From a virus (taxonomy: Duplodnaviria > Heunggongvirae > Uroviricota > Caudoviricetes): a stretch of DNA of 14,981 bases. The notes below the pieces were generated by a model. It searched no databases. It was not told where the DNA came from and saw nothing but the letters and a program-made list of their open reading frames with translations. The position numbers were made by a program, and so were the translations under genes. Location of the stretch: positions 1 through 14,981 of IMG/VR virus record IMGVR_UViG_2606217106_000010, one strand, 5' to 3'. Positions 1 through 14,981 of the stretch are shown here, one piece after another. The stretch's first letter is position 1, and each line of letters begins with the position of its first letter.

Positions 1-472
1 TACGTCACTTAAAAAACTCAGGCCGCAGTCGGTAACCTCGCGCATACAGCCGGGCAGTGACGTCATCGTCTGCGCGGAAATGGACGAACAGTGGGGCTAT
101 GTCGGGGCTAAATCGCGCCAGCGCTGGCTGTTTTACGCGTATGACAGGCTCCGGAAGACGGTTGTTGCGCACGTATTCGGTGAACGCACTATGGCGACGC
201 TGGGGCGTCTTATGAGCCTGCTGTCACCCTTTGACGTGGTGATATGGATGACGGATGGCTGGCCGCTGTATGAATCCCGCCTGAAGGGAAAGCTGCACGT
301 AATCAGCAAGCGATATACGCAGCGAATTGAGCGGCATAACCTGAATCTGAGGCAGCACCTGGCACGGCTGGGACGGAAGTCGCTGTCGTTCTCAAAATCG
401 GTGGAGCTGCATGACAAAGTCATCGGGCATTATCTGAACATAAAACACTATCAATAAGTTGGAGTCATTACC
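1..472 (+). mobile_element. IS1 insertion sequence, right-hand ~470 bp; the rest lies left of the window
   Basis: Sequence ends with the characteristic IS1 terminus ...CAATAAGTTGGAGTCATTACC at 451-472, and the internal ORF is InsB. The element is cut by the window edge, so its completeness cannot be judged. Confidence 0.9.
2..457 (+). CDS. insB: IS1 transposase InsB, C-terminal portion (5' partial at window edge)
   Basis: The frame is open from nt 2 and translates ...[48 protein letters not shown]...[15 protein letters not shown], matching IS1 InsB as I recall it. The provided ORF 80..457 is the internal-Met part of this frame. Confidence 0.9.
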
Positions 473-516
473 GGAAGCTAATTCTGATATTAGCGATCCC
501 ATGTATTATTGGTTTT

Positions 517-1887
517 ATGCCAGCTCCGGCAGGATTAAGCGAACTGGCGTGGGTGCTTTTTGGTATTTACCTGGCGGCCATTGTGGGGCTGGTTATCAAG
601 CCTTTCCCGGAACCTGTCGTACTGTTAATTGCCGTTGCTGCCTCAATGGTGGTGGTCGGTAACTTATCCGACGGTGCGTTTAAAACCACCGCCGTATTAA
701 GCGGTTACTCTTCAGGTACCACCTGGCTGGTGTTCTCGGCGTTTACCTTAAGCGCCGCATTTGTGACCACCGGTTTAGGTAAACGTATTGCCTATCTGCT
801 GATTGGTAAAATCGGTAACACCACGCTGGGTCTGGGTTACGTTACGGTATTCCTCGATCTGGTACTGGCTCCGGCAACACCGTCTAACACCGCGCGTGCG
901 GGCGGCATTGTGTTACCGATCATCAACAGCGTGGCGGTGGCTTTGGGGTCCGAACCGGAAAAAAGTCCGCGTCGTGTCGGACATTACCTGATGATGTCCA
1001 TTTACATGGTCACCAAAACCACCAGCTATATGTTCTTTACCGCAATGGCGGGGAACATTCTGGCGCTGAAAATGATCAACGACATTCTGCACCTGCAAAT
1101 TAGCTGGGGTGGATGGGCGCTGGCAGCCGGATTGCCGGGCATCATTATGCTGCTGGTCACCCCGCTGGTGATTTACACCATGTATCCACCAGAAATTAAG
1201 AAGGTGGATAACAAAACCATCGCTAAAGCGGGCCTTGCCGAACTAGGACCGATGAAAATCCGCGAAAAAATGCTGCTCGGTGTCTTTGTGCTGGCGCTGC
1301 TGGGCTGGATTTTCAGTAAGTCTCTGGGGGTTGATGAATCCACCGTGGCAATCGTTGTTATGGCAACCATGCTGCTGCTGGGTATCGTTACCTGGGAAGA
1401 CGTGGTTAAAAATAAAGGCGGCTGGAATACCTTAATCTGGTACGGCGGTATTATCGGCTTAAGCTCCTTATTATCGAAAGTTAAATTCTTCGAATGGTTA
1501 GCTGAAGTCTTTAAAAATAACCTGGCATTTGATGGTCACGGTAACGTTGCTTTCTTCGTTATTATTTTCCTCAGCATTATCGTGCGTTATTTCTTCGCTT
1601 CCGGTAGTGCCTATATCGTTGCTATGTTACCGGTATTTGCCATGCTGGCGAACGTCTCCGGCGCACCGTTAATGTTAACCGCGCTGGCACTGTTGTTCTC
1701 CAACTCCTATGGCGGCATGGTTACTCACTATGGCGGCGCGGCAGGTCCGGTCATCTTTGGCGTGGGTTATAACGATATTAAATCCTGGTGGTTGGTCGGT
1801 GCGGTACTGACGATATTAACCTTCCTGGTGCATATCACCCTCGGCGTGTGGTGGTGGAATATGCTGATCGGCTGGAACATGCTGTAA
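517..1887 (+). CDS. ybhI: DASS-family (divalent anion:Na+ symporter-like) inner-membrane transporter YbhI; the N-terminus may be truncated by the upstream IS1
   Basis: 456-aa ORF, highly hydrophobic with many predicted TM segments, matching E. coli YbhI in sequence and in its position before ybhJ/ybhC. No ATG/GTG/TTG exists in frame between the upstream stop (412-414) and 517. The in-frame upstream codons 472-516 encode a hydrophobic stretch (RKLILILAIPCIIGF) that looks like coding sequence running into the IS1 end. Confidence 0.85.
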   Translation: MPAPAGLSELAWVLFGIYLAAIVGLVIKPFPEPVVLLIAVAASMVVVGNLSDGAFKTTAVLSGYSSGTTWLVFSAFTLSAAFVTTGLGKRIAYLLIGKIGNTTLGLGYVTVFLDLVLAPATPSNTARAGGIVLPIINSVAVALGSEPEKSPRRVGHYLMMSIYMVTKTTSYMFFTAMAGNILALKMINDILHLQISWGGWALAAGLPGIIMLLVTPLVIYTMYPPEIKKVDNKTIAKAGLAELGPMKIREKMLLGVFVLALLGWIFSKSLGVDESTVAIVVMATMLLLGIVTWEDVVKNKGGWNTLIWYGGIIGLSSLLSKVKFFEWLAEVFKNNLAFDGHGNVAFFVIIFLSIIVRYFFASGSAYIVAMLPVFAMLANVSGAPLMLTALALLFSNSYGGMVTHYGGAAGPVIFGVGYNDIKSWWLVGAVLTILTFLVHITLGVWWWNMLIGWNML

Positions 1888-2069
1888 ATATTCTCGTCAT
1901 ACTTCAAGTTGCATGTGCTGCGTCTGCGTTCGCTCACCCCAGTCACTTACTTATGTAAGCTCCTGGGGATTCACTCGCTTGTCGCCTTCCTGCAACTCGA
2001 ATTATTTAGAGTATATCCATTTATTATCTTTCTGCGCACTTCACGGTGCGCAGATATCTGGAGCATTTG

Positions 2070-4331
2070 ATGATCAAGTTATCTGAAAAAGGCGTGTTTC
2101 TCGCCAGTAATAACGAAATAATTGCCGAAGAACATTTCACCGGCGAAATTAAAAAAGAAGAAGCCAAAAAAGGCACTATTGCCTGGTCTATTCTCTCTTC
2201 GCATAATACGTCCGGAAATATGGATAAACTTAAAATTAAGTTTGATTCATTAGCCTCTCACGATATTACCTTTGTTGGTATTGTACAGACCGCTAAAGCG
2301 TCCGGTATGGAACGTTTCCCGCTGCCGTATGTGCTGACCAACTGCCATAACTCACTCTGCGCCGTCGGCGGCACTATTAACGGTGATGACCATGTTTTTG
2401 GTTTATCGGCGGCCCAGCGTTATGGCGGTATTTTTGTGCCTCCGCATATTGCGGTCATCCATCAATATATGCGTGAGATGATGGCAGGCGGCGGCAAAAT
2501 GATCCTCGGGTCAGACAGCCACACCCGTTACGGTGCATTAGGGACAATGGCAGTCGGTGAGGGCGGCGGTGAGTTGGTAAAACAGCTGCTTAATGACACC
2601 TGGGATATCGACTATCCGGGCGTGGTTGCGGTGCATCTGACCGGAAAACCTGCGCCGTATGTGGGGCCACAGGATGTGGCGCTGGCTATCATTGGCGCGG
2701 TGTTCAAAAACGGTTACGTCAAAAACAAAGTCATGGAGTTCGTTGGACCGGGCGTTAGCGCGCTCTCTACCGATTTCCGTAACAGCGTTGACGTGATGAC
2801 CACTGAAACGACCTGTTTAAGTTCTGTCTGGCAAACCGATGAAGAAGTCCATAACTGGCTGGCGCTGCACGGTCGCGGCCAGGATTACTGCCAGCTTAAC
2901 CCTCAACCGATGGCGTACTACGATGGCTGCATCAGCGTTGATTTAAGCGCCATCAAACCAATGATTGCGCTGCCGTTCCACCCGAGCAACGTGTATGAAA
3001 TCGACACACTGAACCAGAACCTGACCGACATTCTGCGTGAGATTGAAATTGAGTCCGAACGCGTGGCGCACGGTAAAGCCAAACTCTCGCTGCTGGATAA
3101 AGTGGAAAATGGTCGCCTGAAAGTGCAGCAGGGGATTATCGCGGGCTGTTCTGGCGGTAACTACGAAAACGTCATCGCGGCGGCGAATGCACTGCGCGGT
3201 CAATCCTGTGGCAATGACACCTTCTCGCTGGCAGTTTACCCGTCATCACAGCCGGTGTTTATGGATCTCGCCAAAAAAGGTGTGGTAGCAGATTTGATTG
3301 GCGCAGGCGCAATCATCAGAACCGCGTTCTGCGGCCCATGCTTTGGCGCGGGCGATACGCCAATCAACAACGGTTTGAGTATTCGCCACACCACGCGTAA
3401 CTTCCCGAACCGCGAAGGCTCTAAGCCAGCTAATGGGCAGATGTCAGCGGTGGCGTTGATGGACGCTCGTTCTATCGCTGCGACTGCGGCAAACGGTGGC
3501 TATTTAACCTCTGCCAGCGAACTTGATTGCTGGGACAACGTGCCGGAGTACGCCTTCGATGTAACGCCGTATAAAAACCGTGTTTATCAGGGCTTTGTGA
3601 AAGGGGCAACTCAGCAACCGCTGATTTACGGGCCGAACATTAAAGACTGGCCGGAATTGGGTGCGCTGACTGACAATATCGTCCTGAAAGTGTGCTCGAA
3701 GATCCTCGACGAAGTGACCACCACCGACGAACTGATTCCTTCCGGTGAAACCTCTTCTTATCGTTCAAATCCGATTGGTCTGGCGGAGTTTACCCTGTCT
3801 CGCCGCGATCCCGGTTATGTTAGCAGAAGTAAAGCGACTGCTGAGCTGGAAAATCAGCGTCTGGCGGGGAATGTCAGCGAGCTGACAGAGGTGTTTGCGC
3901 GCATTAAGCAGATTGCTGGTCAGGAGCATATTGATCCGCTGCAAACTGAAATTGGCAGCATGGTCTATGCGGTGAAACCAGGCGATGGTTCTGCGCGTGA
4001 ACAGGCGGCGAGCTGCCAGCGTGTGATTGGCGGTCTGGCGAATATTGCCGAGGAGTACGCGACTAAACGCTATCGTTCTAACGTCATCAACTGGGGGATG
4101 TTACCGCTGCAAATGGCGGAAGTACCAACCTTTGAAGTGGGGGATTACATTTACATCCCTGGCATTAAAGCGGCGCTGGATAATCCGGGTACGACGTTTA
4201 AAGGTTATGTGATCCATGAAGATGCGCCGGTAACGGAAATTACGCTCTATATGGAAAGTCTGACTGCTGAAGAGCGCGAGATTATCAAGGCGGGTAGTTT
4301 GATTAACTTCAATAAAAACCGTCAGATGTAA
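2070..4331 (+). CDS. ybhJ: Aconitase-family protein YbhJ
   Basis: The provided ORF starts at GTG 2046, but the in-frame ATG at 2070 ([11 protein letters not shown]...) gives 753 aa, the length I recall for E. coli YbhJ. The protein has aconitase-like glycine-rich and Cys-containing regions and the expected position between ybhI and ybhC. Confidence 0.88.
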
Positions 4332-4344
4332 AAAGCGCCATGTG

Positions 4345-4552
<208 letters not shown>

Positions 4553-4564
4553 AGTTAATTGCTC

Positions 4565-5848
4565 TTACTTCTTCGCCTCTGCAACCACTTTACTACCCAC
4601 GCCGCGGTTATTGTATTCCCACATGCGGTTGTAGTTAGTGTCATTCAGATTGCGCTGTATTTCGTCGTTATCATCTACGCTGCCGGTATTACCCGCAAAC
4701 GGACGATTAGAGATCACCGCATCGGCCCACGGTTTAGCCGTGTTAAAACCTTCGTTGATGGCGCTATCACGGATCACCACCTGACCGTTGGTATTGGCAT
4801 CAACATCCAGCGAGCGGCCCAGTTGCGCCACACCATCACCGAAAGCATTGAAACGGCTGTTTACGGCGAGGAAACCGTAGTAAATGTTGGACAGCGTAGC
4901 CGGTGCAAACACATACGCTTCTTGCTGAGTACGTGAGTTCACCACGCGGAATTCGGTGTTATCGAACACCACTGCGCCGCGACCAGAAACGATATCCACA
5001 TCCCCTTCAATGTAGCTGTTGGTCACCAGCGTACGCGGCTGACGATTTGTTTCCAGACGGTTCTGCACACCGCTGTTGGTGACAAAGAAGGTGTTCTGAC
5101 GACCGAGAATGTTAACGTTGTTAATCTGTACCTGGTCACCATCAGTACGCAGTGCCACCGCCGGATGGTTACCTGCATCTACGCTATCGCCCAGCGTGTT
5201 TTCGATGGTCAGATTTTGCAGTTGCAGGCCATTGTTTTGTGACCAGAAGACCGCAGAGCAGAGAACACCGATACTGTCGCTGCGTTTGCTCTGGCAGCTA
5301 TCGTACATATACCACGCTGGTTTACCTGGCATATATTTGCCGCGCGGGTTGACGTCGTGACGCCAGTCGGCAGGGCTCATGCCACCATCAAGGGAAAGCC
5401 CAATCTTCACATCAATCGGTTTTTCACCTGTACCGTACAGAGTAATTCCACCCGGAGCGGCAGGGACATATACCGTTCCCTGATACTCACCAGGCATCAC
5501 GGCAATATACTGGCGCTTGTTGGTACGCTTGATAATTGCCGCATCTACCGCCGCCTGAATCGTGGTATGCGTTACACCTTGAGTGCCCGCCGGGCCGACA
5601 ACAAAGTCAGGTTGCGCAGGCAGGGTAATCGGGGAAGGATTCCACGCTGCAGCACCTGGTGTCAGGGATGCAAAATAGTGTTGAGCATCGAAATTCTGCG
5701 CTTCTTTTGCCGACAGAATCGGGCGAGAAGAGGTACCAGGCGCGGTTTGATCAGAAGGACGTTGATCGGGCGGGGTTGAGCTACAGGCGGTCAGCGTCAC
5801 GCCAAAAGCCAATGCCAGCGCCAGACGGGAAACTGAAAATGTGTTCAC
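4565..5848 (-). CDS. ybhC: Outer-membrane lipoprotein YbhC (pectinesterase-family fold; putative acyl-CoA thioesterase)
   Basis: 427-aa ORF with a lipoprotein signal peptide and lipobox (MNTFSVSRLALALAFGVTLTAC...). It is the last host gene before attB-lambda in E. coli, and its length matches YbhC. Confidence 0.9.
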   Translation of the reverse strand: MNTFSVSRLALALAFGVTLTACSSTPPDQRPSDQTAPGTSSRPILSAKEAQNFDAQHYFASLTPGAAAWNPSPITLPAQPDFVVGPAGTQGVTHTTIQAAVDAAIIKRTNKRQYIAVMPGEYQGTVYVPAAPGGITLYGTGEKPIDVKIGLSLDGGMSPADWRHDVNPRGKYMPGKPAWYMYDSCQSKRSDSIGVLCSAVFWSQNNGLQLQNLTIENTLGDSVDAGNHPAVALRTDGDQVQINNVNILGRQNTFFVTNSGVQNRLETNRQPRTLVTNSYIEGDVDIVSGRGAVVFDNTEFRVVNSRTQQEAYVFAPATLSNIYYGFLAVNSRFNAFGDGVAQLGRSLDVDANTNGQVVIRDSAINEGFNTAKPWADAVISNRPFAGNTGSVDDNDEIQRNLNDTNYNRMWEYNNRGVGSKVVAEAKK

Positions 5849-5879
5849 AGGTTGCTCCGGGCTATGAAATAGAAAAATG

Positions 5880-5982
5880 AATCCGTTGAAGCCTGCTTTT
5901 TTATACTAAGTTGGCATTATAAAAAAGCATTGCTTATCAATTTGTTGCAACGAACAGGTCACTATCAGTCAAAATAAAATCA
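5880..5982. other. Lambda-type attL (bacterial arm, 15-bp common core, phage P-prime arm with Int arm-type and IHF sites)
   Basis: Core GCTTTTTTATACTAA at 5895-5909 is preceded by host sequence TGAAGCCT and followed by GTTGGCATTATAAAAAAGCATTGCTTATCAATTTGTTGCAACGAACAGGTCACTATCAGTCAAAATAAAATCATTATTTGATTTCAATTTTGTCCCACTCCC, which is the lambda attP P-prime arm as I recall it. Confidence 0.92.
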
Positions 5983-7053
5983 TTATTTGATTTCAATTTT
6001 GTCCCACTCCCTGCCTCTGTCATCACGATACTGTGATGCCATGGTGTCCGACTTATGCCCGAGAAGATGTTGAGCAAATTTATCGCTTATCTGCTTCTCA
6101 TAGAGTCTTGCAGACAAACTGCGCAACTCGTGAAAGGTTGGCGGATCCCCTTCGAAGGAGAGACCTGATGCTTTTCGTGCGCGCATAAAATACCTTGATA
6201 CTGTGCCGGATGAAAGCGGTTCACGACGAGTAGATGCAATTATGGTTTCTCCGCCAAGAATCTTTTTGCATTTATCAAGTGTTTCCTTCATTGATATCCC
6301 GAGAGCATCAACATGCAATGTTGTTGGGATGGCAATTTTTACGCCTGTTTTGCTTTGCTCGACATAAAGATATCCATCTACGATATCAGACCACTTCATT
6401 TCGCATAAATCACCAACTCGCTGCCCGGTAACAACAGCCAGTTCCATTGCAAGTCTAAGCCAACATGGTGATGATTCTGCTGCTTGATAAATTTTCAGGT
6501 ATTCGTCAGCCGTAAGTCTTGATCTCCTTACCTCTGATTTTGCAGCGCGAGTGGCTGCGACCGGGTTTGTTGTTATATGGCCTTCAGCCATAGCCTCTCG
6601 GAATGCATCGCTCAGTGTTGATCTGATTAACTTGGCTGATGCCGCCTTTCCCTCGTCTATGTATCCATTGAGCATTGCCGCAATTTCTTTTGTGGTGATG
6701 TCTTCAAGTGGAGCATCAGGCAGACCCCTCCTTATTGCTTTAATTTTGCTCATGTAATTTATGAGTGTCTTCTGCTTGATTCCTCTGCTGGCCAGGATTT
6801 TTTCGTAGCGATCAAGCCATGAATGTAACGTAACGGAATTATCACTGTTGATTCTCGCTGTCAGAGGCTTGTGTTTGTGTCCTGAAAATAACTCAATGTT
6901 GGCCTGTATAGCTTCAGTGATTGCGATTCGCCTGTCTCGGCCTAATCCAAACTCTTTACCCGTCCTTGGGTCCCTGTAGCAGTAATATCCATTGTTTCTT
7001 ATATAAAGGTTAGGGGGTAAATCCCGGCGCTCATGACTTCGCCTTCTTCCCAT
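5983..7053 (-). CDS. int: Phage lambda-type integrase (tyrosine recombinase)
   Basis: 356-aa ORF MGRRRSHERRDLPPNLYIRNNGYYCYRDPRTGKEF...HLLGHKSDTMASQYRDDRGREWDKIEIK, near-identical to lambda Int by recollection. It sits directly against the P-prime arm of attL, as in a lambda lysogen. Confidence 0.96.
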   Translation of the reverse strand: MGRRRSHERRDLPPNLYIRNNGYYCYRDPRTGKEFGLGRDRRIAITEAIQANIELFSGHKHKPLTARINSDNSVTLHSWLDRYEKILASRGIKQKTLINYMSKIKAIRRGLPDAPLEDITTKEIAAMLNGYIDEGKAASAKLIRSTLSDAFREAMAEGHITTNPVAATRAAKSEVRRSRLTADEYLKIYQAAESSPCWLRLAMELAVVTGQRVGDLCEMKWSDIVDGYLYVEQSKTGVKIAIPTTLHVDALGISMKETLDKCKKILGGETIIASTRREPLSSGTVSRYFMRARKASGLSFEGDPPTFHELRSLSARLYEKQISDKFAQHLLGHKSDTMASQYRDDRGREWDKIEIK

Positions 7054-7145
7054 TTCTGATCCTCTTCAAAAGGCTACCTGTTACTGGTCGATTTAAGTCA
7101 ACCTTTACCGCTGATTCGTGGAACAGATATTCTCTTCCATCCTTA
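7031..7145 (-). pseudogene. xis: xis remnant: only the C-terminal ~37 codons of lambda-type excisionase remain
   Basis: The reverse strand encodes ...KDGREYLFHESAVKVDLNRPVTGSLLKRIRNGKKAKS* and overlaps the int start as in lambda. Lambda-like sequence ends near 7145/7146, with no upstream xis start codon or N-terminal coding sequence. Confidence 0.75.
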
Positions 7146-7155
7146 TATAACCAGG

Positions 7156-7336
7156 TGAATCATTTGATACCGACAAGGGTTTTAGTGAAAGGAGGTGAAA
7201 TCACCTGTAAGATACTGAAATAAAACAGGTGATGGCTAGATGTGCGGATAAGGTCTATTTGATACCGATTGTGCAATAATTAGTCATTTATTATAAAATC
7301 GGCAACTCATTTGATACTGTGGTTTTAGTCTTTTAA
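7156..7336 (+). repeat. Putative left end (attL) of a Mu-like transposable prophage with three direct transposase-binding-site-like repeats
   Basis: CATTTGATACCG at 7161-7172, TATTTGATACCG at 7256-7267 and CATTTGATACTG at 7308-7319 are direct repeats; repeats 1 and 3 are each followed by GGTTTTAGT. Spacing of ~95 and ~52 bp resembles Mu L1-L2-L3. A candidate terminal 5'-TG lies at 7156-7157. Confidence 0.55.
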
Positions 7337-7377
7337 GGCGTTCCAAACAATGCGAAATACTCGATATAGTGCAAAAT

Positions 7378-7406
7378 GCGGGCTAATGCTATTAACCCGC
7401 TTTTGG
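7378..7406 (-). terminator. Possible hairpin terminator overlapping the 3' end of the repressor gene
   Basis: GCGGG (7378-7382) and CCCGC (7396-7400) form a 5-bp stem with a 13-nt loop, flanked by a T/A-rich run on either strand. The stem is short. Confidence 0.3.
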
Positions 7407-7937
7407 TTCTACCGCGTTAGATTTGCGACTTCTCTCAGTTTCTTCCAAAATCTCTCTGACGCGTTCGTCAGACATACCTTCAAGCTGTAATGCAGCTATT
7501 CTTTTCCTTCCTTCTAAGCGGATTAGATCTTGATTTTCAGGCTCTAACAACCGAGCTAAGTACTTGGCTCCATTCAGAACCAAATTTTTCGATAGCTGCT
7601 CTAAGTCTTTTTCATCAAGTGCGCTGATAATCGTCATAATTATCTTCTTGCTTTCATCTTGATTTTCCTTGATCTCACAACGATTCACTTGTGATGCATC
7701 ACTGAATCCACATAGCCACTCAACACTTACTCCTTCGATAGACGCAATCTGAAGGGCGACACTTAAGGATGGCTCAGTGCCACGAGACAGATAATTGTTT
7801 AGTGTTGAAAATGAAAGCCCCCAATCTCTTGCTGCAGCTCTGACGCTGCGGGAGCCAATCAGCCTTTTCAGACGCTCAGCAATGCTTTCTTTTCTACCAC
7901 CAGGAAAAGAAAGAGATGTTGTTGTTTGCTTGTTCAT
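7392..7937 (-). CDS. Prophage repressor with Cro/CI-type HTH, in the position and orientation of Mu c
   Basis: 181-aa ORF divergent from ner. The N-terminal region (IAERLKRLIGSRSVRAAARDWGLSFSTLNNYLSRGTEPSLSVALQIASIEGVSVEWL) has the pattern of an XRE/CI-family HTH. There is no obvious S24 peptidase domain. Confidence 0.7.
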   Translation of the reverse strand: MNKQTTTSLSFPGGRKESIAERLKRLIGSRSVRAAARDWGLSFSTLNNYLSRGTEPSLSVALQIASIEGVSVEWLCGFSDASQVNRCEIKENQDESKKIIMTIISALDEKDLEQLSKNLVLNGAKYLARLLEPENQDLIRLEGRKRIAALQLEGMSDERVREILEETERSRKSNAVEPKAG

Positions 7938-8121
7938 TTTCTTTTCTTCCTATCAATTTGAAATTATTAACTTTTAGTGTTGTCAGCAACCATTGATCCA
8001 CAATAGACAAAAGAAAGATGTTTTTTTGCTTTACATGAAGCAGAAGTGGATCAATACTTATATCAAATTTGATAACTAAGTTTAGTTATCAAATTTCGTA
8101 ACTTTTTAGGATAGATGAATC
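7938..8121. promoter_or_regulatory. Divergent promoter/operator region between the repressor and ner
   Basis: AT-rich 184-bp intergenic region containing a 14-bp perfect palindrome TATCAAATTTGATA (8061-8074), a further half-site copy TTATCAAATTT (8086-8096), and a 10-bp inverted repeat ATTGATCCAC (7993-8002) / GTGGATCAAT (8046-8055). Confidence 0.5.
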
Positions 8122-8352
8122 ATGGCGAGAAATGAAGTTAAGCCTGATTGGCATCCTCAAAGAATTTTGGGGGAAGTCAGAGCCAGAGAAGGAAGCATGA
8201 GGGCGCTGGCCCGTAAAGCTGGCGTGGGTCAGAACAATCTGTACAACGCGGTATACCGCCATGTTCCCAAGTATGAGGGGATTATCGCGGAATGCCTGGG
8301 GGTGCCGCCCGAGGAGATTTGGCCCAGCCGCTACATTCGTAAGGTCGCGTAA
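8122..8352 (+). CDS. ner: Ner-like DNA-binding protein (Mu Ner / Nlp family)
   Basis: 76-aa ORF containing the motif EEIWPSRY (cf. Mu Ner ...PEVIWPSRY) and a KPDWHPQRILG N-terminus resembling Mu Ner. It is the first gene of the rightward operon and sits immediately before the transposase gene. Confidence 0.85.
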   Translation: MARNEVKPDWHPQRILGEVRAREGSMRALARKAGVGQNNLYNAVYRHVPKYEGIIAECLGVPPEEIWPSRYIRKVA

Positions 8353-8354
8353 TT

Positions 8355-10442
8355 ATGTTTGCTTCAGTCAAAGAACTGGTTGGATTACCGGGGATGCCGG
8401 GAACGGAGCAAGGCGTTCGCTATTCAATCAGGAAGTATGCAACCAGCGAAACCAGCAGACGCCGCAAGAAAGGCGCTAAAGGTTTTGAATACAGCATTGA
8501 CTGTTTACCTGAAGTGACACAGCAGGCATTACGCGAACGTTATGCCCTGCAACTGATGACGCAAAAAGCCGATGAATCACCGGCTCCGGTGGTGACAAAG
8601 GCCAGACGCTCGTCTGCCGTGGTTGATGCGGTGGAGGCATATCGCGGATCACCACAACTGATGGTCGAACGCCTCAATGCCCTGACTGAAAACCAGCGCC
8701 AGGTGGCAGACGCACGCATTGCGATCGTCAGTGAGGTGCTGAAATTCACGCAACAACCCGGTTTCAGCTGCGCTAAAGCTATCCGGTTCATCGTTGACCG
8801 CCTGTCACACTCGCAACTGGATGAGCGCATTGTGGCAATGGTTGAGATAGCGAACGCCAGAAAGGGAAACAGTCGCGTGTTGAGTGAAATCACGCTGAAA
8901 CGCTGGATTGCGGCCTTTAATAAGGCACAGAACGCTGCTGAACGCCTGCTTTTGCTGGCACCAGGTAAACGCCAGGAAATAAAAGCCGAAGATATTAACT
9001 GGTTGCCCGAATTTCTGGCGCAGTATCGCCAGTCAAACGGCCGACCAATGACCGAGGCTTACGAGGATTTTGTTGCCGAATGGCAGCACCGGCACGCTGA
9101 TGAGCCTTATATGCTCGATATCATGCCGTCTTATGACACCATTCGCCGCGCAATGAAGAAACTGCCGGAAGTGGTGAAACAAAAAGGACGGGTTACCGGC
9201 AGTGAATACCGCCAGCTTGAGGGATTCACGCGCCGCGACTGGTCAAAAATGCCGGTGAATTATGTCTGGATTGGTGACGGTCACGGCATGAAGCTGAAAT
9301 GCGCGCACCCGGTTCACGGGCGGCCATTCGCACCGGAAGTGACCTTTGTTATCGACGGTGGCACGCGCTTTGTGGTGGGCTGGAGCCTTGACCTGGCTGA
9401 AAATGTTTTCGCCGTAGCCGGTGCCATACAGCACGGTATTCGCCATCATGGCAAACCGTTTCTGTATTACTCGGATAATGGCTCCGGGGAAACCGCCGAC
9501 GTCCTGGATAAGGAGATTGTGGGGATACTGCCACGACTGGGGATTAATCACCCGACAGGGATTGCCGGTAATCCGCAGGGACGGGGCATTATCGAACGGC
9601 TTAACCGCACATTACCGATGCGCATAGCCCGTAAATACCGCACCTATTTCGGGAAAGGAGCAGATCGCGAGACGTTACGTAAAACCAACCGCGATTTACG
9701 CTCGGCATTCAGTGCCCTGCAACAGGGCAAACGGCTGAACGCCCGGCAGCAGTCAGCGATGCGTGATTTACCGTCCTGGTCTGAACTGATTGATGCCATT
9801 CGTGACGGTGTTGAGTGGTACAACAACCGGCCGCACGATGAATTACCCATGAAGCCGAACGGTAAACATTACAGCCCGGCGGAGTTCAGAAAAAAACGCC
9901 TGGCGGAAGAGGACACGGAAATTGAATGGCTGTCCGATGTTGAACTGCGGGATATGTTCCGGCCGATGGTGGAGCGCCCTGTAAGACGCTGTGAAATACG
10001 CTGGCTGAATAATATTTACTACGCGCCCGAGCTGCGTGACGAGCATGGCCGTAAGGTACTTATCAGCTATGACATTCATGATGCCGAACGAATTACCGTG
10101 CGCCGCCCGGATGGCAGCGTGATTTGCGAGGCGGTATGGGACGGCAATAAACGCGAAGCCTTCCCTGTCAGCGCGGAATACTACAAACAGCAGCAGCGCC
10201 TTAAAGGCATGCGTAAACGCGCAGAGGAAAAAATCCGTGATGCCGAGGATGAGGTTGTCAACGTGCTGGAGCACAAGCCGCAGGAGCCCTGGCTGGAAAA
10301 CATATACCGCCCTGTGGGTAATACGGTGACCGTTCAGCAACCGGTCGCTGACGATGAACCTGATGAAGAATACGAGCGTAATTTCCAGCGGGGATTGCAA
10401 CTGCTCGAAGCGAAATTAAAAGAAAGTGATCCGCTGGCCTGA
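8355..10442 (+). CDS. MuA-family DDE transposase (transposable-phage transposase A)
   Basis: 695-aa ORF. Its N-terminus resembles the MuA enhancer-binding domain (cf. Mu MELWVSPKECANLPGLPKTSAGV...GVKGGKAIEY versus here ...GLPGMPGTEQGV...GAKGFEYS). The catalytic-core region VWIGDGHGMK...ILGWSLDLAEN parallels Mu WINGDGY...ILGWRCDVSEN. It is followed by a B-like gene. Confidence 0.92.
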   Translation: MFASVKELVGLPGMPGTEQGVRYSIRKYATSETSRRRKKGAKGFEYSIDCLPEVTQQALRERYALQLMTQKADESPAPVVTKARRSSAVVDAVEAYRGSPQLMVERLNALTENQRQVADARIAIVSEVLKFTQQPGFSCAKAIRFIVDRLSHSQLDERIVAMVEIANARKGNSRVLSEITLKRWIAAFNKAQNAAERLLLLAPGKRQEIKAEDINWLPEFLAQYRQSNGRPMTEAYEDFVAEWQHRHADEPYMLDIMPSYDTIRRAMKKLPEVVKQKGRVTGSEYRQLEGFTRRDWSKMPVNYVWIGDGHGMKLKCAHPVHGRPFAPEVTFVIDGGTRFVVGWSLDLAENVFAVAGAIQHGIRHHGKPFLYYSDNGSGETADVLDKEIVGILPRLGINHPTGIAGNPQGRGIIERLNRTLPMRIARKYRTYFGKGADRETLRKTNRDLRSAFSALQQGKRLNARQQSAMRDLPSWSELIDAIRDGVEWYNNRPHDELPMKPNGKHYSPAEFRKKRLAEEDTEIEWLSDVELRDMFRPMVERPVRRCEIRWLNNIYYAPELRDEHGRKVLISYDIHDAERITVRRPDGSVICEAVWDGNKREAFPVSAEYYKQQQRLKGMRKRAEEKIRDAEDEVVNVLEHKPQEPWLENIYRPVGNTVTVQQPVADDEPDEEYERNFQRGLQLLEAKLKESDPLA

Positions 10443-10524
10443 AATAAAAAAATAACCCGAGGGGTGACTCAGGTTATTTGAGGTTTCAGTCTCGGAGAAT
10501 GCTGTCTCAAGCGAGGTGAATAAT

Positions 10525-11457
10525 ATGACCGATATTAACGATGTAATCAAGACCATTGATGAACTTATTGATGGCGGCGTACTGACGCAGTATGCCATCG
10601 CCAGAGAGGCGGGAATTTCCGACGGCACATTATCGGCTTTCCGTAAGGGAAAATATAAAGGCGATAACGCTGCTGTGGCTGCTTCCCTGCGCTCCTGGTA
10701 TGAGAACTGGAATAAACAAAGCGCACTGCCGGAACCGCCGCAGTTTGTGGAAACTCAGACAGTCCAGGAGCTGCGCGCACTGTTTCAGGCGGTTCGCCTG
10801 ATGGGCTGTATTAACGTTATTGTGGGCGTACCGGGTGTGGGTAAAACGGCCACTGCCCGTAATTACTGCCAGGAGCAACCAAACACCTGGATGATCACCC
10901 TGTCACCCGCGCACTCCAGCGTCACGGAGTGTCTGCTGGAGCTGGCCGATGCGCTGGGGATTGATTACACCCGCGCGAACAAAGGGGCATTATCCCGCGC
11001 CATCCGCCGTCGCCTGATGGGAACGCGTGGACTGGTGATTGTGGATGAGGCGGATCATCTTGGTATTGACGGTCTGGAGCAACTCCGGGCAATTCAGGAC
11101 GCCACGGGGATCGGGATGGTGCTTATTGGTAACCCGCGCGGATTGTTTAAAGGTGGACGCCGCGCCTTTGATGATTTATCGCGCCTGTTCAGCCGTCTTG
11201 CCCGTACAAAACAACTTCGCAAGGCCAAAAAGGCGGATGTGCTGGCCATTGCCAGGGCATGGGGTATCAGTGGTGAGGCCGAGCTGGCCGTCATGCAGGC
11301 TATCGCTGAAAAGCCGGGAGCGTTACGCGTTCTGACACATACGCTTAACCAGGCGTGGCTCACCGCCAGCGGTGAAGGCGCGGCGCTGACAGAAAAACAT
11401 ATTAATGCGGCCTTTAAAGAGGTTTATACCAACCCTGAATTACTCTCACAGGTGTGA
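10525..11457 (+). CDS. MuB-family AAA+ ATPase / target DNA activator
   Basis: The provided ORF starts at GTG 10516; the ATG at 10525 with a GAGGTG RBS upstream is the more likely start. Walker A VGVPGVGKT and Walker B LVIVDEADHL are present. Strong resemblance to Mu B (PEPPRFVETQTV..., QKPGALR...). Confidence 0.9.
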   Translation: MTDINDVIKTIDELIDGGVLTQYAIAREAGISDGTLSAFRKGKYKGDNAAVAASLRSWYENWNKQSALPEPPQFVETQTVQELRALFQAVRLMGCINVIVGVPGVGKTATARNYCQEQPNTWMITLSPAHSSVTECLLELADALGIDYTRANKGALSRAIRRRLMGTRGLVIVDEADHLGIDGLEQLRAIQDATGIGMVLIGNPRGLFKGGRRAFDDLSRLFSRLARTKQLRKAKKADVLAIARAWGISGEAELAVMQAIAEKPGALRVLTHTLNQAWLTASGEGAALTEKHINAAFKEVYTNPELLSQV

Positions 11458-11459
11458 TT

Positions 11460-11681
11460 ATGGTGATATTTAATATTCCTGATATTTACGGACGCTTTCA
11501 CCTGGTGAATTTCGATAACGTCAAAGCAGTCTCCGTGTCTGACAGTGAAGAATGTGGCGATTTACTTTTTGAATTTAATGATCGCACCAGAATGGCAATA
11601 TCGGCAGGACTTGATCGTGAAGGTGCGAAAGAAGCTTACAGCAATATTTGTCGTTTTATCGGTGCAAAACGAATCAGCTAA
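11460..11681 (+). CDS. Hypothetical small early protein (positional equivalent of Mu kil)
   Basis: 73-aa ORF starting at an ATG that overlaps the end of the B gene (a GTG at 11454 is an alternative start). It has the same orientation as the early operon. No recognisable motif. Confidence 0.5.
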   Translation: MVIFNIPDIYGRFHLVNFDNVKAVSVSDSEECGDLLFEFNDRTRMAISAGLDREGAKEAYSNICRFIGAKRIS

Positions 11682-11693
11682 ACGAGGTGTTAT

Positions 11694-11948
11694 ATGAATA
11701 TGCAATCCTGCGGTAACAAAATGAATTTATTCGACTCCCTGAACAGCGCGCGCCGTCTGACCGAACTTGCCGGTGCGGTACTGGAACGCAGTAAGCGCTA
11801 CCCACAACGTTTTGCACTGAAAACCACGCCGCCGGTAGGCAACGTGCAGGGAACCGGTGAAATTGAAATCACCATACAGACCAACGGCCTGCGCCGCCGT
11901 GTGAAGGCCACCCGCATAAGCGGATGCACGGTTTACTGGGAGGTGTGA
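11694..11948 (+). CDS. Hypothetical early-region protein
   Basis: 84-aa ORF with a GAGGTG RBS 5 nt upstream, tightly packed in the operon. Function unknown. Confidence 0.5.
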   Translation: MNMQSCGNKMNLFDSLNSARRLTELAGAVLERSKRYPQRFALKTTPPVGNVQGTGEIEITIQTNGLRRRVKATRISGCTVYWEV

Positions 11949-11949
11949 G

Positions 11950-12231
11950 ATGAAACGAAATCTGATTGCGTGGGCGTGGTCGAGCGGTCTCATTGAGTTT
12001 GGTTACGTCCTGCCGGAAGGTGCATTGCCGATAGTTGCCGGAAAGCCTGCCACAGTACGGCATGTGATTGAGGTTATGGCGCGTCATGGACGTGATGAAC
12101 AGGAGCAGTTACTGGTTCCGGGGATACCGGAAGCGGTGACGGAGGAAGAAGCCTTTAATGCCATGATTCGGTTCTGCCGTGAGGTCAGACGCCGGGTCAG
12201 TTATCCAAACAGAACGAGGACCAGAGGATGA
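11950..12231 (+). CDS. Hypothetical early-region protein
   Basis: 93-aa ORF with a GGAGGTG RBS. It starts 2 nt after the previous stop and overlaps the next start (ATGA). Function unknown. Confidence 0.55.
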   Translation: MKRNLIAWAWSSGLIEFGYVLPEGALPIVAGKPATVRHVIEVMARHGRDEQEQLLVPGIPEAVTEEEAFNAMIRFCREVRRRVSYPNRTRTRG

Positions 12232-12500
12232 GTAAAGTTGTACGCATTATTTTCGAATACAAGGAGCACGTTATCCATAAAAACGCTGATGAAACAGTGC
12301 ACATGGGGGTAAGTCTGGGCATACGTTCAACCGGGATAAAGCAGAAAGGTGATGGACCCGCCATGATTTTTGGGGTGGTTATGCTCGCGGAAAGCAGAGA
12401 CTTTGCTGAACTTGTGGCAATGAAAGCCAGAGCGCTCATGAAAGATATGAACATGAGTTCCGGGGTTATTAAAGGTAATGAATTTAATCAGCAGGGGTAA
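12228..12500 (+). CDS. Hypothetical early-region protein, paralog A (N-terminus MSKVVRIIFEYKEHV)
   Basis: 90-aa ORF whose start overlaps the upstream stop (ATGA). Its N-terminus is shared with the next ORF. Confidence 0.55.
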   Translation: MSKVVRIIFEYKEHVIHKNADETVHMGVSLGIRSTGIKQKGDGPAMIFGVVMLAESRDFAELVAMKARALMKDMNMSSGVIKGNEFNQQG

Positions 12501-12504
12501 TTCC

Positions 12505-12798
12505 ATGAGCAAAGTACGCGTTATTTTTGAATTTGAGCATGTTTCGCATGACGAAAAGCTGGCAGGCAATGACTGTGTTGAAGTGCATGAAAAGATTGGT
12601 GTGGATGTGAAAACAGAACGTGATACGGAGAACAGCCCGACGTCACTCTGTGATGTTTATGCAAGTATTCTCCAGTATCACAGTCCTGCAATTATTCATT
12701 TCCTCTCAGCGGAATTTCAGGCATCTGCACAGGATTTTGGAGCGGATGCCATCATTAAACGCCACCGCGTGCATAAAGCATCAGGCACACTGCAATAA
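12505..12798 (+). CDS. Hypothetical early-region protein, paralog B (N-terminus MSKVRVIFEFEHV)
   Basis: The provided ORF starts at 12478; the ATG at 12505 has a better RBS (AGGGG) and gives the N-terminus MSKVRVIFEFEHVSH, which parallels the preceding gene. Confidence 0.55.
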   Translation: MSKVRVIFEFEHVSHDEKLAGNDCVEVHEKIGVDVKTERDTENSPTSLCDVYASILQYHSPAIIHFLSAEFQASAQDFGADAIIKRHRVHKASGTLQ

Positions 12799-12809
12799 GG
12801 AAAAACAAA

Positions 12810-13340
12810 ATGGCTAAACGCGTTACAAAATTAAAGGCCGCAGCCGAGGCCGCACCACAGACCCGCGAAGAAGTCAGCCGCGATATCCGACGCTTTGGGG
12901 ATATGCAGCGTGAGGCGCTGCGCCTGGAAACAGCGATGAATGACGAAGTGGCAGAAATTACCGCCCGTTATACGCCGCAGATTGAAAACCTTAAAAAAGA
13001 AATCAAAGTGCTTTTTAAAGGGATTCAGGACTGGTGTAAAACCAACCGCAATGAGCTGACGAACGGCGGTGAAACCAAAACAGCCAATCTGACCACCGGA
13101 ACGGTGTCATGGCGGCTGGGAACGCCATCATGCAGCGTCAGCCGTGATGTGGAAGGCGTGATTGAAATGCTGCGCCGTATGGGCCTTGAGCGCTTCATCC
13201 GCACGAAAGAGGAAGTGAATAAGCAAGCTGTCCTGGCGGAGCCGGATGCGGTGAAAGACATTGCCGGTATTAAGGTGAATAAAGGCGCTGAAAGTTTTTA
13301 TGTCGAGCCTTTTGAACAGGACGCCGGACTGAACAAATAA
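12810..13340 (+). CDS. gam: Gam-like host-nuclease inhibitor / DNA-end-binding protein (Mu Gam family)
   Basis: 176-aa ORF resembling Mu Gam along its length by recollection: LQREALRLETAMNDEVAEITARY..., NRNELTNGGETKTANLTTGTVSWR..., RFIRTKEEVNKQAVLAEP..., PFEQDAG. Confidence 0.88.
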   Translation: MAKRVTKLKAAAEAAPQTREEVSRDIRRFGDMQREALRLETAMNDEVAEITARYTPQIENLKKEIKVLFKGIQDWCKTNRNELTNGGETKTANLTTGTVSWRLGTPSCSVSRDVEGVIEMLRRMGLERFIRTKEEVNKQAVLAEPDAVKDIAGIKVNKGAESFYVEPFEQDAGLNK

Positions 13341-13437
13341 CACCGCATTAAATCTTTAAATATCACTTCATTTTAATTATGGCGCTCGCGTCAGGGGACT
13401 GCCTGCGCCTGTAAACTGAAAATAAGGAACAGGAAAT

Positions 13438-13980
13438 ATGGCATATTTTTATTTCAAATTAGACTGTGTGCAGACAAATAAATATTTCACCAAATATCAA
13501 CAGACTGTTTTACCGCTACGCAACAGTATTCTTCGGGCGTTACTGAAAAATACAGGCGCTACCGGATTGCGCTTAAAGCCGTTCGCCATGGACGTAATCA
13601 GTGAGTTTTATTTTTCCGGTGCTCTGCCTGCGGGCTGGTGTAAGCGCGATGATGTGGCTTTTATCGGTGGTGGACAGTGCTTTATAGCCAGACCTGATGA
13701 GTCATGCCCTGAAGGAGCGGCGATTGCCGCAATGATTGAAGCCGCTGAACGCGAGTTAAGAAAGCGTCCTGATTTCCTTGTCTGGCTCTGTGAAAAGCTG
13801 GGGGTAATGAGAATCCCCTCCATGTTTAACACAGACTCCTGGTGGACCCCGTCTCTCTCCCGTGATGCCCTGTGCGTGGTGTTTAAAGTAGGTGCTTATG
13901 GCAGGGAAATAAACGGGCGTATTCCTGAAGAATGTCAGGAAATTAAACATTCTGAATATGTGGCGCTGACGGAGGAATAA
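13438..13980 (+). CDS. Hypothetical protein (late part of Mu-like early region)
   Basis: 180-aa ORF with an AAGGA RBS, preceded by a 97-bp AT-rich gap after gam. No recognisable motif; it contains several Cys residues without a clear zinc-finger spacing. Confidence 0.55.
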   Translation: MAYFYFKLDCVQTNKYFTKYQQTVLPLRNSILRALLKNTGATGLRLKPFAMDVISEFYFSGALPAGWCKRDDVAFIGGGQCFIARPDESCPEGAAIAAMIEAAERELRKRPDFLVWLCEKLGVMRIPSMFNTDSWWTPSLSRDALCVVFKVGAYGREINGRIPEECQEIKHSEYVALTEE

Positions 13981-13983
13981 TTC

Positions 13984-14517
13984 ATGATAGATGCAAAAGT
14001 GCTTGAAGGGGTTAAAAACTGGCTGAGCATTTACGGGCGTCTGACCTGCGGCGTTCTGGCTCAAAGAATGAATATGCCGCCATCCTCGATGGTCTATTTT
14101 CTGCGTGATGCGGTTGATGCCGGTGTGCTGACAGAATGTAACGGTTTTTATGATATTCCGCGTCCCCGCCCGGTACAGCCGGTTCGTCGCAAATGCCGCC
14201 AGGAGTCTGTGGCTGATGATGTTCAGTGGTGCAGCTTCAGAAAATCCCTGCCGTGGGTTGAAGGGCATGATATTCCGTCGATGGCGTGGGAATTTGCGCA
14301 GGGCGTTCTGACCTGTGAAACCGTTTATGTGGTGGCTGAAGTTGATGAGCAGGCAATGAAAGAAGGTGTGCCCCAGTTTGTGATGGCGTATATCGACATT
14401 CGCCTGGGGACCATTATCTGCGGTTTAAGCGGCTGGAATATCACCGAACATGTTCTGCGTTACCTGATTGTTGACCGGACGGCAGCGCCTGCCGGGATAT
14501 CTGCGGAGGTGGCGTAA
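13984..14517 (+). CDS. Hypothetical protein, possibly with an N-terminal winged-helix-like domain
   Basis: 177-aa ORF with a GGAGGA RBS, starting 3 nt after the previous stop. Residues ~15-50 (IYGRLTCGVLAQRMNMPPSSMVYFLRDAVDAGVL) resemble a winged-HTH pattern; this is inference only. Confidence 0.5.
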   Translation: MIDAKVLEGVKNWLSIYGRLTCGVLAQRMNMPPSSMVYFLRDAVDAGVLTECNGFYDIPRPRPVQPVRRKCRQESVADDVQWCSFRKSLPWVEGHDIPSMAWEFAQGVLTCETVYVVAEVDEQAMKEGVPQFVMAYIDIRLGTIICGLSGWNITEHVLRYLIVDRTAAPAGISAEVA

Positions 14518-14979
14518 TGTTCTTTAAAACATCGAACCCTTCCGCGCTGGCTGCGTGGCAAAAATATCAGCAGGACTGCCAGCAAGTTAAGGATGAGGCA
14601 AAACGCCTTGAGGCCGTGCTGAATGTTGAGTGCCGGTCGGTATTTGTATCCGGTATCAGCGGTTTTTGTTTTAAGGGGCTGCGTTTTACGAATGACAAAT
14701 ATCCTTTTCATCGTGATTTATGGCGAAAACCGACTGCGTCGAATGGCTGGAGCTGCACGCCGCGCACATCGCGCATTCCCAAAGCCCTGCGCACTGCCTC
14801 TGACGAACTGAACAGTCTGTGGCGTGAATATTCGCCCGTCACGTATGCCAGAACCGATGCCCTGTTGTTCTGGCTGGGCATTGATTTCTCAGCAATCCTG
14901 TATGGCCCTGTGGAGTGGTTCTGCGTTGACGATGTGATTTATCTTCAGTGCGGTGTAAAACCCGCAAATCAGAAAATGA
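14518..14979 (+). CDS. Hypothetical protein, 3' partial (runs off window end)
   Basis: An ATG at 14518 immediately follows the previous stop (TAATG). The frame stays open for 154 codons to the window edge (MFFKTSNPSALAAWQKYQQDCQQVKDEAKRLEAVL...). It is absent from the supplied ORF list, probably because it has no stop codon within the window. Confidence 0.45.
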
Positions 14980-14981
14980 CC

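Follow-up and report, generated by a model that had tools for sequence, protein, structure and literature searches.

The stretch of DNA considered here (the window; 14,981 nucleotides, positions 1 to 14,981 of the IMG/VR virus record IMGVR_UViG_2606217106_000010) is part of an Escherichia coli chromosome and carries, in this order, a ybhC-like gene, an integrase gene, the left end of a Mu-like prophage, the repressor gene c, a control region and the genes ner, A and B (Table 1). The segment from 7392 to 8352 can, with good confidence, be regarded as the immunity and early-control module of a Mu-like transposable E. coli prophage of the Sp18 type, whose repressor carries a DNA-binding head of the XRE/CI type on a tail of the type found in the Mu repressor, Repc; this is the best explanation of the evidence as a whole. 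The open reading frames of c, ner and A lie where an earlier note on this DNA had placed them. The right end of the Mu-like element is outside the window, so that only its left end was read.

Table 1. Features of the window, starting with the immunity and early-control module (positions are those of the window; a point marks features given without a strand)
Feature	Position	Strand	Basis
c, lysogeny repressor, 181 amino acids, two domains	7392..7937	-	PHROG 3037, E=4.5e-60
XRE/CI-type helix-turn-helix N-domain of c (residues ~17-76)	7710..7889	-	Pfam, PDB profile, AlphaFold2 (AF2), Foldseek
All-helical C-domain of c (residues ~93-181), homologous to the C-terminal half of Mu Repc	7395..7661	-	PHROG, hhalign, BLASTP
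c-ner control region, 184 bp, promoters and operators	7938..8121	.	Sequence; comparative footprint
Candidate c operators: 10-bp perfect inverted repeat ATTGATCCAC (7992-8001) / GTGGATCAAT (8046-8055)	7992..8055	.	
Predicted early promoter Pe, TTTACA-17-AATACT, towards ner	8030..8058	+	Consensus match only
32-bp perfect palindrome AAATTTGATAACTAA-gt-TTAGTTATCAAATTT (8065-8096; 15-nt arms, 2-nt centre), directly downstream of Pe	8061..8103	.	
ner, Cro-like early regulator, 76 amino acids	8122..8352	+	HTH_35, E=1e-21; PHROG 769, E=1.5e-24
A, transposase, 695 amino acids	8355..10442	+	PHROG 310, E=3.6e-211; PF02316; Mu-transpos_C, 2e-17
Variable 5' segment of A: DNA-recognition part of the Ialpha winged helix (residues ~1-47)	8355..8495	+	Protein and DNA identity
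B, MuB-type AAA+ transposition protein	10516..11457	+	Phage-MuB_C, E=2.5e-25; AAA_22; PHROG 296, E=2.5e-110
attL, left end of the Mu-like prophage, starting TATAACCAGG; junction with lambdoid xis sequence	7146..7325	+	
Lambda-type integrase	5983-7053	-	Pfam
ybhC-like pectinesterase-family gene	4565-5848	-	Pfam

The early region has the composition that defines a Mu-like element, with a divergent c gene, a ner gene of the HTH_35 family, a DDE transposase containing both the Ialpha and the Mu C-terminal domains, a MuB ATPase and a defined end in which A-site motifs are repeated. As in Mu, c is the leftmost gene of this region and is divergently oriented, and its product matches PHROG 3037, a family annotated as 'transcriptional repressor', over the full length (residues 3-180 on profile positions 2-188 of 189). 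Ner is 43% identical to Mu Ner. The transposase shares 23% identity with MuA (E=2e-14), and its N-terminus aligns with MuA residues 3-61 and matches PF02316 (HTH_Tnp_Mu_1) with an E-value of 1.6e-8 and 35.4 bits, against a gathering score of 23.3. The earlier note had called ner, A and B clearly Mu-like, which is borne out by the families to which they belong, with the reservation that the variable cassette described below includes ner itself and A up to codon ~45. The closest relatives of the element are Mu-like elements inserted in Stx phages, with 94% DNA identity outside the immunity region, as well as Sakai Sp18 and the Yersinia phages vB_YpM_5 and vB_YpM_6.

The N-terminal domain of c belongs to the XRE/CI class. 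A profile built from 42 sequences of the family matches solely XRE/CI proteins in the PDB (4ich at 2e-6, TP901-1 CI, P22 C2 and 434), with no Mu repressor or MuA chain among the matches. The Phage_CI_repr family (PF07022) matches c at E=7e-3 with 17.1 bits, where the gathering score is 22, and homologues at 48-53% identity clear the gathering score of HTH_3, of Phage_CI_repr or of both. The AF2 model of the domain has the five helices of a lambda-repressor-like fold (18-26, 31-38, 42-51, 57-67 and 71-75), with a predicted local distance difference test score of 86-90 at residues 21-70. In Foldseek, this model superposes on P22 C2, 434 repressor and Cro, and SinR with a target TM score of 0.73-0.79 and a root-mean-square deviation of 1.5-2.1 A over ~60 residues. 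Conversely, a Pfam scan of c gave no match to PF02316 at E<=1, and a BLASTP comparison of c with the N-terminus of its own transposase (first 148 residues) found nothing, the best E-value being 2.8. The shared head of the Mu proteins, which formed the premise of the earlier note, is reproduced by the profiles, since Mu Repc and the MuA N-terminus both match phrog_7148 as well as phrog_310. The head of c is thus of another fold class than the transposase Ialpha, as the note had proposed; the profile searches did not place it in the fold family of the MuA and Mu c DNA-binding domains. With heads of different fold classes, the Mu device of paralogous heads bound to the same sites cannot operate here. 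As for the heads of lambda CI, P22 C2 and 434 repressor, the likely mode of binding would be as a dimer on inverted repeats.

The C-terminal half of c leads to a different relationship. Residues 94-178 of c match phrog_7148, the Mu Repc family, with an E-value of 1.2e-4, while Mu Repc residues 90-184 match phrog_3037, the family of c itself, at 1.1e-4; the reciprocal cross-matches between the two families range from 1e-4 to 1e-6, and Mu Repc matches its own phrog_7148 at 6.7e-73. In an hhalign comparison of the two families, the C-terminal halves alone align, at E=4.2e-5. Two intermediates tie the tail of c firmly to that of Mu Repc. One is the repressor of an O157:H7 element on the same backbone (locus L008, NZ_CP076245.1 5047416-5050623), whose tail is 38% identical to that of c (BLASTP E=4e-11). 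The other, P0119, comes from E. coli and has 342 member sequences; it combines an XRE head 32% identical to that of c (E=2e-11) with a tail 53% identical to Mu Repc residues 101-196 (E=5e-26), including the terminal ..PQDVKKAV. P0119 is encoded in a genuine Mu (L013; Logan ERR5014366 contig 61, repressor at 4001-4609), whose transposase shares 91% identity with MuA over its whole length, with almost no differences beyond ~residue 65; ner and the Ialpha sequence of this Mu are each of a type of their own, and it carries a third immunity type, beside Mu and D108. Tails from both head classes align colinearly and end in a conserved basic-Ala-x C-terminus: c ends in ..PKAG, and the endings ..KAG, ..KKAV, ..KQAG and ..KKAS occur across both head types. 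By these alignments c is a chimera, with a Mu Repc-type tail and a different DNA-binding head only, and not a wholly foreign CI. The statement in the earlier note that a CI-type repressor takes the place of Mu c therefore stands for the head and fails for the C-terminal half.

The XRE head is the common state of this family. A search with the profile of the C-domain among 1.84 billion representative proteins returned 95 clusters, and the 70 full-length representatives that contain this domain comprise 47 with an XRE-type head, 22 with a Mu-type head and one with another XRE-like helix-turn-helix. The XRE head is thus the majority state of repressors with a Repc tail and Mu is the minority case, so that the earlier view that the module 'differs from Mu' is true as a description, but takes a minority design (22 heads of 70, against 48 of the XRE type) as the reference. 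A few repressors have tandem heads on the same C-domain, among them XRE followed by Mu-type (P0163), two XRE heads (P0145) and two Mu-type heads (P0134); for the hybrid P0163, the sole contig found is 1.9 kb long and has no recognisable ner or A. Homologues of c in Enterobacterales number 93, and those checked adjoin a Mu-type transposase and a MuB-type ATPase, with ner adjoining in the two cases where it was called. The window repressor is therefore an ordinary member of PHROG 3037, a sequenced but uncharacterised family, and no new kind of system is revealed.

Comparison with known systems leads to the same picture. The repressors of Mu and D108 (PHROG 7148) have the same position and orientation as the window c, leftmost and divergent from ner-A-B, and Mu Repc (196 amino acids, against 181 for c) shares with it the C-terminal helical domain and the basic-Ala-x tail. 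However, the head of Mu Repc is a winged helix paralogous to MuA Ialpha, while that of c is a five-helix XRE-type domain, and hence c cannot have sites in common with the transposase by homology. ECs_4943 of Sp18 (PHROG 3037) is 42% identical to c over both domains and has the neighbours ner, A and B in common, but it represents another immunity type, in which the recognition region, the operators, ner and Ialpha differ and the body of the transposase is 94% identical. Also in PHROG 3037 and next to ner, A and B are the 'C-repressor' of Yersinia phage vB_YpM_5 and the 'C repressor' of Pseudomonas phage VW-6B, which are 52.5% and 35% identical to c, respectively, over both domains. Pseudomonas phage D3112 resembles the window in that an HTH_3-headed cI stands beside a transposase with a strong PF02316 Ialpha, in line with the comparison that the earlier note had recommended, and HTH/CI-type repressors in Mu-like phages are therefore already established. 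Nevertheless, the C-domain of D3112 cI is a Peptidase_S24 domain (6.1e-23) where that of c is of the Mu Repc type, and a pairwise comparison of the two repressors gave no significant similarity (E=0.39). Lambda CI, P22 C2 and 434 share the fold of c residues ~17-76 at a sequence identity of only 17-25%; the C-terminal dimerisation and autocleavage domain of the lambda CI class is not present in c, where a Pfam scan found no match to Peptidase_S24 or to a lambda-CI-type C-domain.

The earlier proposal that the immunity module had been exchanged is upheld by the comparison with relatives, which were drawn from a backbone survey of 5,426 complete E. coli genomes, from E. coli RefSeq matches and from protein look-ups. 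The backbone of the window element is present in 233 of these genomes, and only 12 of the 233 have the window cassette (>=80% of the query); a search of genome contigs with the transposase returned just two loci, at 74% identity. Seven other E. coli cassette variants and the Mu-like element in Stx phage LC727895 were compared with the window by identity per 30-bp segment. The flanks are mostly 80-100% identical and the stretch from 7326 to 8495 about 20-70%. The left flank is conserved to ~7325 in five of the seven relatives, with L008 and L009 diverging from ~7236, and the right flank is conserved in all of them from ~8496-8526, i.e. from codon ~47-57 of A onward. Relative to the Sp18-type and other cassettes, c, the operators, ner (43%) and residues 1-45 of A all differ; between the window and the Sp18-type transposases, residues 1-45 are 39% identical and residues 46-160 are 94% identical. 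The immunity region is accordingly a recombination cassette that contains c with the operators and ner and extends ~45-55 codons into A. The same cassette pattern underlies the heteroimmunity of Mu and D108, for which a comparison by Mizuuchi et al. in 1986 reportedly found a variable stretch consisting of c, the operators, ner and the 5' end of A.

A smaller unit is nested within this cassette. Relative to the window, L004 and L005 have a ner that is 100% identical, an Ialpha that is 93-96% identical and repressors that are only ~50% identical, and DNA identity resumes within the control region, at ~8016-8046 in L004 and at ~8076 in L005. Similarly, Sakai Sp18 (L006) and the element of JNEC-KY174 (L007) are 100% identical across attL, ner and A, and differ completely in c and the adjacent ~120 bp of the control region, which looks like a clean and recent immunity swap of a single gene. 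These pairs show that a replacement can be confined to c and its proximal sites, while ner, the Ialpha part of A and 60-70 bp upstream of ner always stay together. As c and its operators are exchanged without Ialpha, the target of Ialpha is probably not the repressor operators themselves. The repressor of L008 (1004-1510, minus strand), on the other hand, has a PF02316 head (29 bits against the gathering score of 23.3), which is 42% identical to the N-terminus of its own A (E=4e-14) and conforms to the Mu paradigm. Both head types are thus present on one E. coli backbone.

The Ialpha domain of the transposase scores above the Pfam threshold in nearly all cassettes examined, across genera, the exception being L009, where the RefSeq-truncated start was scanned (20.8 bits). 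Its retention indicates that the domain is under selection, and suggests that an enhancer in or near the control region is probably still used. Furthermore, the extreme divergence of Ialpha between otherwise nearly identical transposases implies a DNA target that is specific to each cassette. In Mu, the enhancer overlaps the operators O1-O3 and is bound by MuA Ialpha (PMC3145075, PMC3362531). The earlier note had suggested that the enhancer-operator coupling of Mu may not apply, and it is plausible that this coupling is absent if taken strictly as shared recognition; that the enhancer as such has been lost is unsupported, a steric overlap of the enhancer with the operators is possible, and it is probably only the identity of the enhancer with the repressor operators that is in doubt. 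As for L009 (NZ_CP028687.1, 2325-2373), a reading in which its A lacks part of Ialpha was rejected, since the RefSeq start is merely placed too far downstream and translation from an ATG in frame at locus position 2325 gives back the Ialpha N-terminus MWVTAKECVGLPDLP.

The control region between c and ner reflects this modularity, its c-proximal part co-varying with the type of c and its ner-proximal part with the type of ner and A. The predicted promoter Pe is the sole sigma-70-like site between 7140 and 8400 and is kept in L010 and L004. The arms ATTGATCCAC and GTGGATCAAT, which occur in just two exact copies in the window, bracket the -35 element of Pe, and the right arm overlaps its -10 element. 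L010, whose c is of the same type, is the only relative to retain both arms, with one mismatch in the left one, while L004 and L005 lack the left arm; on these comparative grounds they are candidate operators of c. Cassettes of a second ner type (ner-2) have two c types; a TTGATT hexamer, presumably the -35 element of Pe there, is common to both and is surrounded in each by a different inverted repeat, which is likewise a candidate c operator. The 32-bp palindrome is enclosed by two direct TATCAAATTT(C)GxTAACT repeats; it is kept, with 1-3 substitutions in the left arm, in all cassettes with the identical ner (ner-1; L004, L005 and L010), and other repeats stand in its place in the ner-2 cassettes. 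The Ner proteins of Mu and D108 bind inverted repeats at a position just downstream of Pe, and by analogy the palindrome is probably the Ner operator; it contains TAACTAAGT, which resembles the half-site consensus of Mu Ner. Lastly, CTTTCTTTT-like motifs at 7938-7947 and, inverted, at 8007-8016 recur in E. coli cassettes of the same Ialpha type, with a looser CTTTTGTAG variant in the Yersinia locus L003. Their sequence is similar to that of the CTTTTYAGTAA repeats in the Mu operator, and it is a matter of speculation that they are Ialpha sites.

A mode of action can be proposed from these elements. The repressor would most likely bind as an oligomer, with its XRE head on the inverted-repeat operators around Pe and its Repc-type tail mediating oligomerisation, and would thereby silence ner-A-B. 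In lytic growth, Ner would bind the 32-bp palindrome downstream of Pe, and the transposase, which keeps Ialpha, would use an enhancer in or near the control region. Repressor and transposase would no longer recognise the same sites via homologous heads, and if the Ialpha target differs from the c operators, a direct block of transposition by the repressor would have to be steric. In the absence of an S24 domain, induction through RecA-stimulated autocleavage is unlikely; in Mu, oligomerisation and ClpXP-controlled stability are functions of the C-terminal half of Repc, and a Mu-like route via the C-terminal tail and host proteases would be the default expectation for c. A more tentative idea, which we regard as rather less probable than its opposite, is that in XRE-headed Mu-like cassettes the Ialpha target travels with the Pe-proximal palindrome and ner, and not with the repressor and its operators. 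Were this true, the enhancer would be uncoupled from the lysogeny operators and maybe coupled to the Ner site, and the repressor would control transposition through transcription alone.

Several observations weigh against this account of the module. The HTH_3 match of the window protein itself (PF01381, residues 31-75) has an E-value of 2e-4 and 21.8 bits, below the gathering score of 23. BLASTP found nothing between c and Mu Repc, the hhalign probability for the match of the C-terminal halves is just 69.5%, and the homology of the tails is carried by profiles and intermediates. The oligomerisation and ClpXP sensitivity ascribed to the tail are carried over by analogy from the Mu literature. 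The linkage of Ialpha with ner may partly reflect mere adjacency. With regard to the control region, the assignments of c operators and Ner site come from comparing a few short motifs, whose counts in the window are statistically unremarkable, so that their weight lies in position and in co-variation with the c or ner type. The control region contains no match to the IHF consensus WATCAANNNNTTR, which leaves a Mu-like O1-IHF-O2 layout unsupported; the two enhancer clusters of Mu have an IHF site between them.

The sub-threshold Pfam score could also be taken to mean that the c frame encodes some other small helix-turn-helix regulator, such as an antitoxin or an accessory regulator, and not the immunity repressor. 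We consider this highly improbable, as the position, orientation and size are identical to those of Mu c, synteny with A and B (and ner where called) is kept in E. coli, Yersinia, Citrobacter and a Pseudomonas phage, the C-domain is homologous to that of Mu Repc, and prophages that are otherwise identical differ in c, as expected of an immunity determinant. The XRE-type head, unrelated to the N-terminus of A, and the divergent cassette between conserved flanks would likewise suit the acquisition of a complete foreign immunity module of the lambda/P22 type, with a repressor unrelated to Mu c, unchanged ner, A and B, and an operator-linked enhancer that is no longer used. This is improbable, albeit less so than the preceding alternative, because the C-terminal half of c is homologous to that of Mu Repc and contains neither an S24 peptidase nor a lambda-CI-type C-domain, ner and codons 1-45 of A are themselves inside the cassette, and Ialpha is above threshold in every cassette examined except L009 with its truncated start. 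In another version of events, coupling would be kept by overlap, with Ialpha sites interleaved with the XRE-type operators so that the bound repressor occludes the enhancer as in Mu. The 184 bp must indeed accommodate Pe, Pc, the c operators and the Ner site, and the Mu-operator-like CTTTCTTTT-like motifs lie within 6 bp of the candidate operator arm at 7992-8001. However, c and its proximal operators have been exchanged without Ialpha in two independent pairs (window against L004/L005, and Sp18 against L007), and the motif is short and T-rich, with one copy doubling as the ribosome-binding region of c; such overlap is therefore possible but rather doubtful.

Regarding the origin of the chimera, the XRE head could be ancestral in this repressor family, and Mu and D108 derived, in which case their winged helix would be a copy of the transposase gene's 5' end, joined to the same C-terminal scaffold. 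In favour of this order of events are the excess of XRE-type heads among the cluster representatives that bear the C-domain (48 against 22), the presence of XRE-headed members in E. coli, Salmonella, Yersinia, Serratia, Klebsiella, Xenorhabdus, Photorhabdus and Pseudomonas phage VW-6B, and the confinement of the named full-length Mu Repc homologues found to E. coli and Salmonella, bar one 'MULTISPECIES [Pseudomonadota]' entry and several metagenomic ones. Moreover, D3112 and Mu-like phages of Vibrio and Shewanella also use HTH_3-type repressors, and the tandem-head variants show gain or loss of heads on the C-terminal scaffold. But the cluster counts reflect sampling and not a rooted phylogeny, and the occurrence of both heads on one E. 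coli backbone makes it clear that exchange goes on in both directions today. An ancestral XRE head is thus a serious contender that falls a little short of being probable.

Mu is the textbook case in which one region serves as both operator and transposition enhancer, via a DNA-binding domain common to repressor and transposase. The survey shows that the close and distant enteric relatives of Mu usually lack this shared domain and combine a Repc tail with an XRE head, Ialpha being kept in the transposase. For annotation, this means that the name 'C repressor' in Mu-like prophages stands for proteins with either of two head types and a common scaffold; in the Mu-like prophages that are widespread in E. 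coli, including Shiga toxin-producing strains (STEC), the immunity cassettes are modular on two levels, one nested in the other. Naturally occurring recombinants with a difference in c only (the window against L004 and L005, and Sp18 against L007) could be used to separate the two roles of the Mu repressor, and to ask whether direct occlusion of the enhancer is needed for stable lysogeny. Literature searches for the architecture of XRE head and Repc tail, for nested cassettes and for the enhancer in Sp18-type elements returned no description of these. Papers on such phages speak of a 'C-repressor', as in the naming of the Yersinia gene (PMC10434027), and do not remark on its head (PMC10434027, PMC4406740).

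To the left of the module lies sequence of another prophage. The integrase region of the window is 99.8% identical to int-xis of phage mEp332, and the homology to mEp332 xis ends at 7145, with the Mu-like element beginning at 7146. The Mu-like prophage therefore sits within the xis gene of a lambdoid prophage (junction 7145/7146), which, given the adjoining ybhC-like gene, the context suggests to be at att-lambda. With its xis disrupted, this lambdoid prophage is expected to be locked in place. The position of the left end agrees with the element end annotated in LC727895. The attL segment contains the TCATTTGATAC(C) motif three times, at 7160-7173, 7257-7268 and 7307-7317 (repeat families D6 and D8), and these copies are presumed to be the end-binding sites of the transposase. 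The left terminus reads TATAACC in the window as well as in L005 (~701) and L010 (~697), which are inserted at other sites (flgL and xdhA), and TGTAACC in five other relatives. Evidently, the canonical terminal TG of the Mu family is TA in a subset of elements that have still transposed.

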